Positions 7,394-9,150 of a DNA stretch of 12,379 nt are shown piece after piece. This stretch comes from Candidatus Bilamarchaeaceae archaeon (GTDB lineage Archaea; Micrarchaeota; Micrarchaeia; Anstonellales; Bilamarchaeaceae), in NCBI GenBank assembly GCA_038851325.1, contig JAWCKZ010000017.1, positions 1-12,379 of the forward strand. The letters are read 5' to 3'. Each line of letters opens with the position of its first letter. Positions within the stretch are counted from its first letter, which is position 1. Under the pieces are notes generated by a model, which saw only the letters and a program-made list of their open reading frames with translations, searched no databases and was not told where the DNA came from. The translations under genes were made by a program, and so were the position numbers.

Positions 7394-7435
7394 ACGTGCG
7401 ACAGCACCGATGTATGGTGATGGAACACGGCATAA
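7394..7435 (+). other. 16S intron 2 (family B, 42 nt, about 354)
   Basis: Helix GTGC/GCAT, bulges AG|A and AA|C, relaxed outer side. Restores CCTACGGGGTGCAGCAGG. Confidence 0.9.
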
Positions 7436-7550
7436 CAGGCGCGAAACCTCCGCAATGCGCGCAAGCGTGACGGGGGGAGTCCGAGTGGCGACAACTTTGT
7501 TGTCGTCTTTTGCCGAGTGTAAGCAGCTCGGAGAATAAGGGTGTGGGCAA

Positions 7551-7591
7551 ACACAAAACGCGCACGATATATGGACGCGTGAGTGGTTCAA
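7551..7591 (+). other. 16S intron 3 (B-related loop GATATAT, 41 nt, about 509)
   Basis: Helix GGGC/GTTC, bulges AA|A and AA|G. Restores GGGCAAGACTGGTG. Confidence 0.88.
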
Positions 7592-7607
7592 GACTGGTGG
7601 CAGCCGC

Positions 7608-7650
7608 ACGCTATTTGTTCAGGTTTTTAGGAAGGCAAATGGCGGGCTAG
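7608..7650 (+). other. 16S intron 4 (family A, 43 nt, about 525; 530 loop)
   Basis: Helix AGCC/GGCT, bulges GC|A and AG|C. Restores CAGCCGCCGCGGTAA. Confidence 0.92.
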
Positions 7651-7734
7651 CGCGGTAACACCAGCGCCTCAAGTGGTACCCACGAATATTGGGCCTAAAG
7701 CGTCCGTAGCCGGTTTGGCAAGTCTTCTGTGAAA

Positions 7735-7777
7735 AGATGTTGCCTCGTGGAGCGATTTGCGAGACTTCGTCTCACAA
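7735..7777 (+). other. 16S intron 5 (family C-like architecture, 43 nt, about 609)
   Basis: Helix GTGA/TCAC, bulges AA|A and AA|T, inner stem GATG/CGTC. Restores GTGAAATGTTGGGG. Confidence 0.88.
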
Positions 7778-7789
7778 TGTTGGGGCTCA

Positions 7790-7831
7790 ACGCATGACAG
7801 CGCCGATGTATGGCGATGGAATGCGGGTTAT
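7790..7831 (+). other. 16S intron 6 (family B, 42 nt, about 621)
   Basis: Helix GGCT/GGTT (wobble-rich), bulges CA|A and AT|A. Restores GGGGCTCAACCC. Confidence 0.9.
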
Positions 7832-7992
7832 ACCCTAACGCGTGCAGAAGATACTGCCTGACTCGGGAGCGGGGGAGGGCAGGGGTACACCCGGGGTAGG
7901 GGTAAAATCCGTTGATCCTGGGTGGACCACCAGTGGCGTAGGCGCCTGTCCAAAACGCGTCCGACGGTGAGGGACGAAAGCTGGGGGAGCGA

Positions 7993-8037
7993 AACACGAG
8001 ATAGCCAGGTTTTTAGGAAGGGCTACCGAGTGTTCAA
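7993..8037 (+). other. 16S intron 7 (family A, 45 nt, about 781; boundary +/-1)
   Basis: Helix GAGC/GTTC, bulges GA|A and AA|A. Restores GGAGCGAACGGGATTAG. Confidence 0.88.
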
Positions 8038-8126
8038 ACGGGATTAGATACCCCGGTAGTCCCAGCTGTAAATTATGCAGACTTTGGTGTTACGCGCGAG
8101 TAATCGCGCGTAGTGCTGTAGCGTAG

Positions 8127-8161
8127 ACACACACTGTCGAACGACGAAGAGTGTGGCGTAA
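8127..8161 (+). other. 16S intron 8 (unassigned family, 35 nt, about 866)
   Basis: Helix GCGT/GCGT (with G-U pairs), bulges AG|A and AA|G, inner stem CACAC/GTGTG. Restores GCGTAGGTGTTAAG. Confidence 0.85.
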
Positions 8162-8312
8162 GTGTTAAGTCTGCCGCCTGGGGAGTACGATCGCAAGATT
8201 GAAACTTAAAGGAATTGGCGGGGGAGCACCACAAGCCGTGGATGCTACGGTTCAATTGGATACAACGCCGGGAACATCACCAAGGGCGACGGCAGCATGA
8301 AGGCCAGACTAA

Positions 8313-8357
8313 ACAAGGTCTGAGGGTTTTTAGGCACGTACTCAGACCTTGGTTCAA
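8313..8357 (+). other. 16S intron 9 (family A, 45 nt, about 1015)
   Basis: 11-bp inner stem CAAGGTCTGAG/CTCAGACCTTG; helix GACT/GTTC has one mismatch; bulges AA|A and AA|A. Restores CAGACTAAAGATCTTG. Confidence 0.8.
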
Positions 8358-8414
8358 AGATCTTGCCTGACAAGCCGAGAGGTATTGCATGGCCATCGTC
8401 AGCTCGTGGCGTGA

Positions 8415-8456
8415 ACGCGTGACAACGCAGATTTATTGCGGTGGAACGCGGTGTAA
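8415..8456 (+). other. 16S intron 10 (family B, 42 nt, about 1080)
   Basis: Helix GCGT/GTGT (wobble-rich), bulges GA|A and AA|A. Restores CGTGAACTGTCC. Confidence 0.9.
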
Positions 8457-8470
8457 ACTGTCCGGTTAAG

Positions 8471-8517
8471 ACCTTTGAAATGTAGCGCATTTCAAAATTT
8501 GCTACCAAAGGTAGCAA
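8471..8517 (+). other. 16S intron 11 (family C, 47 nt, about 1094)
   Basis: Helix GTTA/TAGC, bulges AG|A and AA|T, inner stem CCTTTG/CAAAGG. Restores GGTTAAGTCCGGCAACGAGCG. Confidence 0.92.
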
Positions 8518-8656
8518 TCCGGCAACGAGCGAGACCCATGCCCATAGTTGCTAATCTCTTCTCCGGAAGGGATGCACTCTACGGGGACTGCCCGCGTTAA
8601 GTGGGAGGAAGGAGTGGGCGACGGTAGGTCAGTATGGTCCGAAACCCTTGGGCTAC

Positions 8657-8701
8657 ACACGAGGTTCGGGTTTTTAGGAGTGCACGAACCGAGTGGGCCA
8701 C
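8657..8701 (+). other. 16S intron 12 (family A, 45 nt, about 1226; first of a tandem pair)
   Basis: Helix GGCT/GGCC, bulges AC|A and AC|A, inner stem CAC-GA-GGTTCG/CGAACC-GA-GTG. Confidence 0.88.
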
Positions 8702-8743
8702 ACGCATGACAGCGCCGATGTATGGCGATGGAATGCGGGCCAC
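8702..8743 (+). other. 16S intron 13 (family B, 42 nt, about 1226; second of a tandem pair)
   Basis: Follows intron 12 directly; helix GGC(C/T)/GGCC, bulges AC|A and AC|A. Removing both restores GGGCTACACGCGG. Confidence 0.88.
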
Positions 8744-8837
8744 ACGCGGCATACAATGGGTGGAACAATGGGTTGCGACTCCGAGAGGAGAAGCTAATCC
8801 CCTAAATCCACTCTCAGTTCGGATTGAGGGTTGCAAC

Positions 8838-8881
8838 ACAAGGTTCAACCAGGTTTTTAGGAAGGGTTGAGCTTGGGCAAA
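8838..8881 (+). other. 16S intron 14 (family A, 44 nt, about 1320)
   Basis: Helix TGCA/GGCA (3 of 4 pairs), bulges AC|A and AA|T. Restores GTTGCAACTCACCC. Confidence 0.85.
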
Positions 8882-9044
8882 TCACCCTCATGAAGCTGGA
8901 ATGGCTAGTAATCGCAGGTCATCATCCTGCGGTGAATGTGTCCCTGCTCCTTGCACACACCGCCCGTCAAGTCATCCAAATGTGTTTTCGGTGAGGCCCC
9001 GGTTATTGCCGGATTCGAACCGAAGATACGTGAGGAGGGCTAAG

Positions 9045-9088
9045 AGCTTTGAGCTGGTGCTCAAAATTTGCCAGCCAAGGGCTAGCAA
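9045..9088 (+). other. 16S intron 15 (family C, 44 nt, about 1494; decoding site)
   Basis: Helix GCTA/TAGC, bulges AG|A and AA|T. Restores AAGTCGTAACAAGG. Confidence 0.92.
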
Positions 9089-9108
9089 TCGTAACAAGGT
9101 ATCCGTAG

Positions 9109-9150
9109 ACGCATGACAGCGCCGATTTATGGCGATGAAATGCGACGGAA
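9109..9150 (+). other. 16S intron 16 (family B, 42 nt, about 1514; helix 45)
   Basis: Helix CCGT/ACGG, bulges AG|A and AA|G. Restores CCGTAGGGGAACCTGCGG. Confidence 0.92.

Follow-up and report, generated by a model that had tools for sequence, protein, structure and literature searches.

Interruption of the 16S rRNA gene

The window analyzed here is a 12,379-nucleotide (nt) stretch of DNA, contig JAWCKZ010000017.1 (C17 in our numbering) of the 18-contig genome of a Candidatus Bilamarchaeaceae archaeon, phylum Micrarchaeota (GCA_038851325.1; 0.9 Mb, 43% G+C, 91% complete). It carries a 16S ribosomal RNA (rRNA) gene interrupted by 16 very short insertions, five of which are copies of a single structured element, family B, that is the subject of this work. 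Rfam model RF01959 for archaeal 16S rRNA matched positions 7002-9069 with 984.5 bits, a match ~690 nt longer than expected. Insertions were located by pairwise alignment, with register refinement, to the insertion-free 16S rRNA of a genome of the same genus (G003). This alignment showed 16 insertions of 35-47 nt each, together about a third of the gene. When all 16 (683 nt) were removed, a 16S rRNA of 1489 nt resulted, with 92.6% identity to that of G003 and 5 gap columns. ARAGORN called no transfer RNAs (tRNAs) in the window. The gene, the family B introns, their two degenerate relatives and the intron adjoining i13 are given below; R1 is a covariance model of family B, and pairing refers to the four-base complementarity between exon and intron tail, both described in later sections.

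7002-9175 (+): 16S rRNA gene with 16 mini-introns (Rfam match to 9069, sequence reading to 9175)
7394-7435 (+): i2, family B, 42 nt; R1 68.3 bits, exon-tail pairing 4/4
7551-7591 (+): i3, degenerate relative of family B, 41 nt; R1 16.1 bits, E 0.23, bulge-helix-bulge (BHB) rule 4/4
7790-7831 (+): i6, family B, 42 nt; R1 66.1 bits, pairing 4/4, of which three are G.U
8127-8161 (+): i8, degenerate relative of family B, 35 nt; R1 26.4 bits, BHB rule 4/4
8415-8456 (+): i10, family B, 42 nt; R1 65.2 bits, pairing 4/4
8657-8701 (+): i12, family A, 45 nt; loop GGGTTTTTAGG, tandem pair with i13, tandem GA adjoining the basal stem
8702-8743 (+): i13, family B, 42 nt; R1 68.8 bits, bulge and central helix in the predicted minimum free energy (MFE) fold
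9109-9150 (+): i16, family B, 42 nt; R1 71.8 bits, pairing 4/4

A sequence-only reading of this DNA had described introns 2, 6, 10, 13, and 16 as five 42-nt introns with near-identical bodies. All five were recovered both by the 16S alignment and by a repeat search of the window, which returned one five-copy family (7387-7431, 7783-7827, 8408-8452, 8695-8739, and 9102-9146). Introns 6 and 13 are identical over their first 36 nt, and intron 16 differs from this common body at 2 positions. The compensatory stem changes that had been pointed out (CACC/GGTG, CGCC/GGCG, and CGCA/TGCG) are present in the sequence, as is the loop GATATAT of intron 3, though that intron matches the family model only weakly. 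MFE folding gave the same hairpin for all five copies, with z-scores of -3.0 to -3.3 for four of them and -1.06 for i2.

The individual copies read as follows. At i2, exon GTGC-AG is followed by A, the hairpin (stem P1 CGTG/CACG, GA/GA, stem P2 CACC/GGTG, loop GATGTAT), and the tail GCAT-AA; at i6, exon GGCT-CA by A, the hairpin, and GGTT-AT; at i10, exon GCGT-GA by A, the hairpin (P2 CGCA/TGCG, loop GATTTAT), and GTGT-AA; and at i16, exon CCGT-AG by A, a hairpin with AA in place of the 3' GA, and ACGG-AA. Intron i13 adjoins i12 with no exon between them: the tail of i12, GGCC-AC, serves as its upstream pairing partner, and i13 ends in the same GGCC-AC. Both introns end in GGGCCAC, and the 11-nt repeat GGGCCACACGC stands on each side of the i13 body. 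The degenerate relatives retain parts of this plan. Intron i3 still has the leading A, a P1 of 3 bp, the loop string, and the tail. Intron i8 still has P1 (CACAC/GTGTG), the 3' GA, and the tail, its upper stem and loop being substituted.

In one hot-spring study, three DNA runs yielded Logan unitigs that showed 0 differences from the intron-bearing gene (e.g., over 7449-7819, 8206-8612, 8607-8731, and 8702-8915); no single contig spanned the whole gene, and the three runs may be the window's own source. The unitigs reached identical copies through different unique flanks and then stopped within the repeated body. Since the flanks are distinct, the family B copies are separately anchored, which bears on the possibility of an assembly collapse. 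No RNA run was found that contains this organism; one compared with the window had only conserved rRNA words in common with it, at 90-95% identity, from the rRNA of other organisms.

Bulge-helix-bulge geometry and splicing enzymes

All 16 insertions obey one rule: an exon ending in four nucleotides (Ca) and then two more is followed by an intron consisting of A, a hairpin, four nucleotides (Cb) complementary to Ca, and A-N, after which the exon resumes. Ca-Cb pairing held at 62 of 64 positions over the 16 introns and at 20/20 for the five family B copies; as a control, shifting the Cb window by 1-4 nt gave 26-40 of 64. The first intron base was A in 16/16, as was the first base of the 3' bulge. 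Since this rule yields two 3-nt bulges containing the splice sites, a 4-bp central helix, and a basal stem that serves as inner helix, it corresponds to the archaeal BHB geometry. Over the 85 members of family B described below, the exon-tail helix was 84% paired with double changes at 4/4 pairs, and excision of the modeled intron in silico yielded a junction-spanning tRNA called by ARAGORN at 21 of the 85 loci. Local folds formed the bulge and central helix for i13 and i16. We regard the elements, with high confidence, as BHB introns.

The genome also encodes what such introns would require. Its EndA (391 aa) is a full-length match to PDB 4fz2, the epsilon2 splicing endonuclease of ARMAN-2 (E 4.5e-130), and an RtcB ligase is present (559 bits). 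Epsilon2-type endonucleases are reported, in the available portions of two papers, to cleave both strict and relaxed BHBs (PMC3239211; PMC12397907).

Distribution of family B among genomes and host genes

R1 was built from a seed alignment of 13 hand-picked copies, each extended into the exons by 8 nt on the 5' side and 4 nt on the 3' side. Such a search had been proposed in the sequence-only reading, and it found the family both in the organism's own genome and in relatives. In the own genome R1 returned 13 matches: the five canonical 16S copies, i8 (26 bits), i3 (16 bits), two in 23S rRNA, one in 5S rRNA, and three beside tRNA-like sequence. By context, therefore, ten lay in rRNA genes and three beside tRNA-like sequence, with 0/13 in intergenic or coding DNA. 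Searched alone, the 23S locus gave four family B matches of 42, 29, 24, and 17 bits (lowest 16.8). This 23S rRNA gene (C13:5569-9220, minus strand; locus L001) spans 3652 nt against a model of 2987 positions, which points to ~665 nt of insertions. The 5S intron (C3:12314-12367, minus strand; locus L038, 1443-1598) lies between …CCGAACACGGAAG and TTAAGC…, and the host was identified by Rfam matches of 49 and 39 bits that cover the entire 5S model around one 41-nt gap. With a second intron allowed, ARAGORN called a tRNA-Gln at the copy on contig C10 and none at the copies on C8 and C4; by eye, the C8 copy interrupts a Glu-type tRNA between positions 21 and 22 of the D-loop.

Among genomes of the same taxonomic family, R1 matched 32 of 99, representing 11 of 23 genera, and an even sample of the phylum gave matches in 8/26 genomes of this family besides the own genome. 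Across 19 further families of the phylum, 0 of 124 genomes matched. An exact pattern for a 25-nt part of the module was found at 13 loci in GTDB species representatives, of which 12 belong to records with the title Candidatus Micrarchaeota, and had 0 matches in viral contigs.

The alignment comprised 85 copies at more than 20 sites, with hosts in five RNA classes: 16S, 23S, 5S, signal recognition particle (SRP) RNA, and tRNA. Host calls by BLAST, and by ARAGORN after excision, assigned 24 copies to 16S, 10 to 23S, 1 to 5S, and 21 to tRNA, leaving 29 without a call, ~20 of which appear by eye to be tRNAs with further introns. The tRNA hosts were Ala, Leu, Ser, Gln, Glu, Arg, and His, with junctions chiefly in the D-loop and the variable/T-arm region. 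Two copies lie in the SRP RNA of relatives (Rfam 54 and 36 bits, under the gathering score). Two further copies occupy the 5' untranslated region (UTR) of an operon for L18e-like and L13-like proteins, where Ca-Cb pairing is poor, and one occupies a tRNA leader. The UTR copies (L052, 1501-1554; L093, 201-254) come from two genomes of one genus; the complete hairpin stands 9 nt before the L18e-like ATG and after a TATA-like box, and the second copy is partly decayed. This hairpin could be either a landing site within the UTR or an operator. Around four copies in unannotated non-coding stretches, no Rfam match was found. At one locus (L106, 2940-3300), two copies 119 nt apart lie in a stretch free of open reading frames (ORFs) behind a TATA-like box, again with no Rfam match. 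From conserved strings, we guess that this may be a heavily interrupted RNase P RNA.

Structure and constraint of the hairpin

The family B module of ~42 nt consists of a leading A, which fills the third position of the 5' bulge, then a 35-nt hairpin, and a 6-nt tail that pairs through its first four bases with exon positions -6 to -3. The hairpin is built of a 5-bp P1, tandem G.A/A.G, a C-G pair, a covarying R-Y pair, a purine-purine mismatch, a 4-bp P2, and a 7-nt loop, GAUNUAU. In the 13-copy alignment 95.4% of cells were paired and 12/15 pairs showed compensatory change; 0 of 500 shuffles did as well, and slid controls gave 23-46%. In the 85-copy alignment 93.3% of cells were paired and 14/15 pairs had double changes (232 cells), values inflated, as is loop conservation, by the copies having been found by and fitted to a model of canonical copies. 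P1 varied by transitions only (C-R-Y-R-Y). The covarying pair that separates the tandem GA from P2 was A-U in 56 copies and G-C in 19, and the C-G pair was present in 78/85. The most constant positions were unpaired ones: the 5' G (82%) and A (94%), the 3' G (92%) and A (93%), and the loop GAUNUAU, each position of which reached 86-95% except N.

Variability was then expressed as the mean pairwise difference within three groups of copies, each group at one host site:

Loop position N: 0.585
Bulge base b2': 0.50
P1: 0.276
Tandem GA: 0.175
P2: 0.128
Six fixed loop bases: 0.125

The tandem GA and the six loop bases thus had 3-5 times fewer differences than loop N and b2'. Since the free positions are near saturation and the adjacent unpaired bases are not, these results suggest purifying selection on sequence, not on pairing alone, and argue against simple youth of the copies. 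The earlier proposal of a fold constrained beyond what BHB splicing needs is borne out in this respect: the stems covary over 85 copies, and the unpaired GA and loop bases are the less variable ones.

Several identities for the hairpin were considered and rejected. A kink-turn (K-turn), which L7Ae binds, consists of a 3-nt bulge followed by tandem G.A/A.G, the other strand being unbulged. Family B resembles it in having tandem sheared-type G.A/A.G beside a Watson-Crick stem and in a 3' strand, AUG-GA, that looks like the K-turn bulge followed by GA. However, the opposite strand has three extra bases (CAG) that pair with AUG, so that the 3 nt on both strands between the GA pair and P2 are paired, and the covariation of the middle pair from A-U to G-C indicates a straight helix with no 3-nt bulge. 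A box C/D small RNA was also rejected: neither box C (RUGAUGA) nor box D (CUGA) is conserved, the 5' strand having the consensus GAC(A/G)G and the 3' strand A(U/C)GGA, the D-box U is present in 33% of copies, and there is no room for a guide. Nor did mimicry of a native rRNA element find support; a genome scan by regular expression and pairing met the internal-loop motif only in the introns and in a few chance coding matches. In Rfam the hairpin matched only CRISPR-DR33, on the opposite strand, scoring 15.9 bits where the gathering threshold is 39 (E 0.27). The last six bases of the loop (AUAUAU or AUGUAU) are self-complementary, fully so in 40 of 59 seven-nt loops when G.U is counted. Nonetheless, a column-shuffle test for kissing loops over 17 distinct loops found compensating changes to be no commoner than in shuffled columns (2581 of 5000 shuffles were as good), and loop-loop pairing of the hairpins is low-odds speculation.

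Spread and turnover

End-to-end alignment of four 16S genes from one genus showed 0, 2, 10, and 16 insertions. None of the five family B copies of the window is held in common with G006; sites 576/577 and 1463 are shared with G001, of the same genus, in which a family B intron occupies the site of i16. In another genus, G014 has a family B intron at the site of i2 (347/349) and a canonical copy at that of i3 (462), and canonical copies stand at the site of i8 (826) in G006, G012, and G023. Site 826 and other common sites hold family B, decayed family B, or unrelated bodies, depending on the relative. The 16S gene of G014 (locus L031), with 26 insertions of 34-104 nt across its whole length, is the densest case in this analysis.

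Recent spread of the copies had been proposed from the near-identity of their bodies, and one part of that proposal stands. Turnover is fast, as the insertion counts above show, and i13 looks newly inserted: no counterpart was present at its site in the 16S genes of relatives examined, which carry the family A intron only, and this, with its abutment on i12 and the 11-nt repeat, looks like a recent insertion beside an existing splice site. Identity of the bodies, the other part, is not enough to give their age. A tRNA-Leu intron in another genus has the very body of i6 and i13, and among 73 copies 5 identical body pairs were seen where about 12-13 would be expected by chance (a rough estimate from column frequencies). 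Identical bodies occur across different genera and host genes.

Interpretation

We consider it very probable that family B is a lineage-specific, multi-gene family of BHB introns of ~42 nt with a conserved structured module. The epsilon2 endonuclease would cut at both bulges and RtcB would join the exons; by analogy with other archaea, the excised 42-nt intron is probably circularized by RtcB as well. The tail is tailored to each site while purifying selection holds the unpaired bases of the hairpin constant, a difference which argues that the hairpin does more than supply a helix. As to what more, our best guess, a tentative one at somewhat under even confidence, is a role as binding handle for some protein of the splicing or RNA-maturation machinery.

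Several points weigh against this reading. Splicing and intron circles in this organism are read from its DNA. Two relatives of family B in the same gene, i3 and i8, have decayed, and other genomes carry different intron families at the same sites, so that viability does not depend on the upper module. At i6 and i2, competing exon pairings win over the 4-bp central helix in the local MFE fold, at i6 a native exon-exon helix, and these BHBs are therefore relaxed forms. At least 3 of the 85 copies are non-intronic, which fits a mobile element as well as a host function, and the alignment that shows the constraint was gathered by its own model.

An alternative, possible though on balance unlikely, is that family B is a selfish mobile hairpin whose copies enter stable-RNA genes at intron slots already present or at BHB-capable sites, its conserved loop and G.A bases being recognized by the copying machinery and of no service to the host, and that it survives only where the endonuclease removes it. 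That one module recurs at more than 20 sites, spanning five RNA classes, would follow naturally, as would the non-intronic copies in the 5' UTR and tRNA leader, the position of i13 next to i12 between copies of GGGCCACACGC with no counterpart in relatives, and the different body families found at one site across genomes, e.g., site 826. The same can be said of one 23S copy that joins the basal part of family B to a family A loop, and of the nearest neighbors of the bodies, which were seldom at the same site (20/73) or in the same genome (15/73). Yet the near-saturation of free positions beside conserved loop bases argues for selection on resident copies and not youth alone. Moreover, no reverse transcriptase was found in the own genome (91% complete), viral contigs held 0 copies, and 0 of 13 own-genome matches were intergenic. 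Simple target-site duplication is no explanation either, since the tails of i2 and i16 are complementary to the exon and do not duplicate it. For a MITE- or REP-like palindromic DNA repeat, which would show copies in both orientations and between genes together with target-site duplication, the observations are mixed: 3 of the 85 copies lie outside introns and an 11-nt repeat flanks i13, but 0 of 13 own-genome matches are in intergenic or coding DNA.

A further reading, to which we give a rather low probability, is that the 35-nt hairpin is a functional RNA in its own right. The released RNAs, or the hairpins within the precursors, might bind a lineage-specific protein or pair loop to loop, coupling maturation of rRNA and tRNA to another process. 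Canonical copies in rRNA genes of the own genome number seven to eight, or ten with the two degenerate 16S relatives; if this reading were true and all were spliced, each round of ribosome synthesis would free that many 42-nt RNAs, probably circular, each with an invariant tandem-G.A platform and a self-complementary loop.

It is still less probable that the hairpin only seems conserved, through recent common ancestry and ascertainment, a stable BHB inner helix being all that is required. The model does recover canonical-looking copies only, the decayed i3 and i8 score 16-26 bits, and other intron families in the same gene lack the module. However, despite a detection margin of ~40 bits there are few point-mutated loops, the low scorers being mostly whole-loop replacements, and the stems hold 232 cells of double substitution while the loop bases beside a saturated position are fixed. 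It is hardly credible that mature rRNA retains the insertions as expansion segments, or that they arose by repeat mis-assembly: unitigs do end inside identical bodies, but the insertions split universally conserved 16S strands, 5S rRNA, and tRNA D-loops, every one has BHB geometry, unitigs of three runs enter by distinct flanks with 0 mismatches, and the same family occurs in relatives from other assemblies.

Relation to known introns and significance

Families of tRNA introns common to several genes, together with a broad-specificity splicing endonuclease, are described for Thermoproteales in the available parts of two sources (cited in PMC3239211; bioRxiv 10.64898/2026.10.13.758758). In contrast to those transposed introns as described there, family B resides in a lineage titled Micrarchaeota with an epsilon2 enzyme, crosses 16S, 23S, 5S, and SRP RNA as well as tRNA, and is a defined 35-nt hairpin with covarying stems, conserved unpaired bases, and a site-specific 6-nt adaptor tail. 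The 16S genes of Thermoproteales contain short, non-coding hairpin introns of <50 nt with BHB motifs, in conserved regions and primer sites, at 7 of 13 intron loci in all, according to the accessible portion of PMC4496867. The introns described here are alike in being non-coding BHB hairpins of <50 nt that strike conserved regions of 16S, and differ from what that portion reports in their number (16 in one gene and at least 26 insertions in a relative) and in forming sequence families that also occur in tRNA and other RNA genes. Candidatus Micrarchaeum acidiphilum ARMAN-2 has the same epsilon2 type and tRNA introns at non-canonical positions, including the D-loop and T-arm; the available text describes tRNA introns alone for it, with no common structured module and no mini-introns in rRNA, 5S, or SRP RNA (PMC3239211; PMC12397907). 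For Micrarchaeota, the sections available to us report single large 16S insertions (PMC8784108) and group I and BHB introns in rRNA (PMC6125680).

In the full-text literature, which did not cover subscription journals, we found no mini-intron swarms, no common structured module, and no BHB introns in 5S or SRP RNA; family B would include the first BHB introns in 5S rRNA and SRP RNA. With 16 introns here and at least 26 insertions in a relative, these would to our knowledge be the archaeal rRNA genes densest in introns. Family B is a protein-spliced intron family with a covarying structure of its own, and its constrained unpaired bases are unexpected if the splice motif suffices. The 35-nt hairpin accordingly offers a handle on what, besides the endonuclease, recognizes archaeal introns and on how introns without proteins spread, and the interrupted 5S and SRP RNAs widen the known substrate range of the splicing endonuclease. 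There is also a practical side. Several introns would split standard primer sites: i2 the 349F/341F region, i4 the 515F region, and i15 the 1492R region. Amplicon surveys and rRNA gene callers would then overlook such organisms or report a wrong gene size for them.

Other intron families and neighboring features

Family A comprises six further introns of the 16S gene (7264-7304, 7608-7650, 7993-8037, 8313-8357, 8657-8701, and 8838-8881). They have the apical loop string G(G/A)TTTTTAG(G/A) in common, and tandem GA lies by the basal stem in i7 and i12. The loop resembles a U-rich, Sm-site-like sequence. In the 23S rRNA gene of the same genome, one intron (C13:6341-6397, minus strand) has a B-type base fused to an A-type loop. 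A third family, family C, consists of i11 (8471-8517) and i15 (9045-9088), which have a TCAAAATTTGC(T/C)A(C/G)C…AGCAA part in common and each follow the BHB rule at 4/4 positions. The window also contains an SRP RNA gene (2525-2825, minus strand; Rfam Bacteria_large_SRP, 93 bits) with a 49-nt insertion near the tip of helix 8. This insertion resembles i11 and i15 of family C (…TTTGAAA…TTCAAA.TATTGCCAGC…), and by hand its BHB register did not fit the simple rule.

Besides the epsilon2 enzyme, the genome has a divergent ORF of EndA fold (154 aa; C8:39847-40308, plus strand; locus L100, 1318-1782) with weak NCBIfam matches to tRNA splicing endonuclease and its beta subunit. As a candidate partner of the hairpin it was rejected, since it occurs in 96/99 genomes of the family, compared with 32/99 for family B, and so does not track it. 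A second ORF of the L7Ae family appears by eye to be an ordinary L30e-like protein. Finally, a 31-nt direct repeat resembling those of clustered regularly interspaced short palindromic repeats (CRISPR) occurs three times at the start of the contig (9-39, 76-106, and 143-173), 67 nt from start to start with 36-nt spacers.

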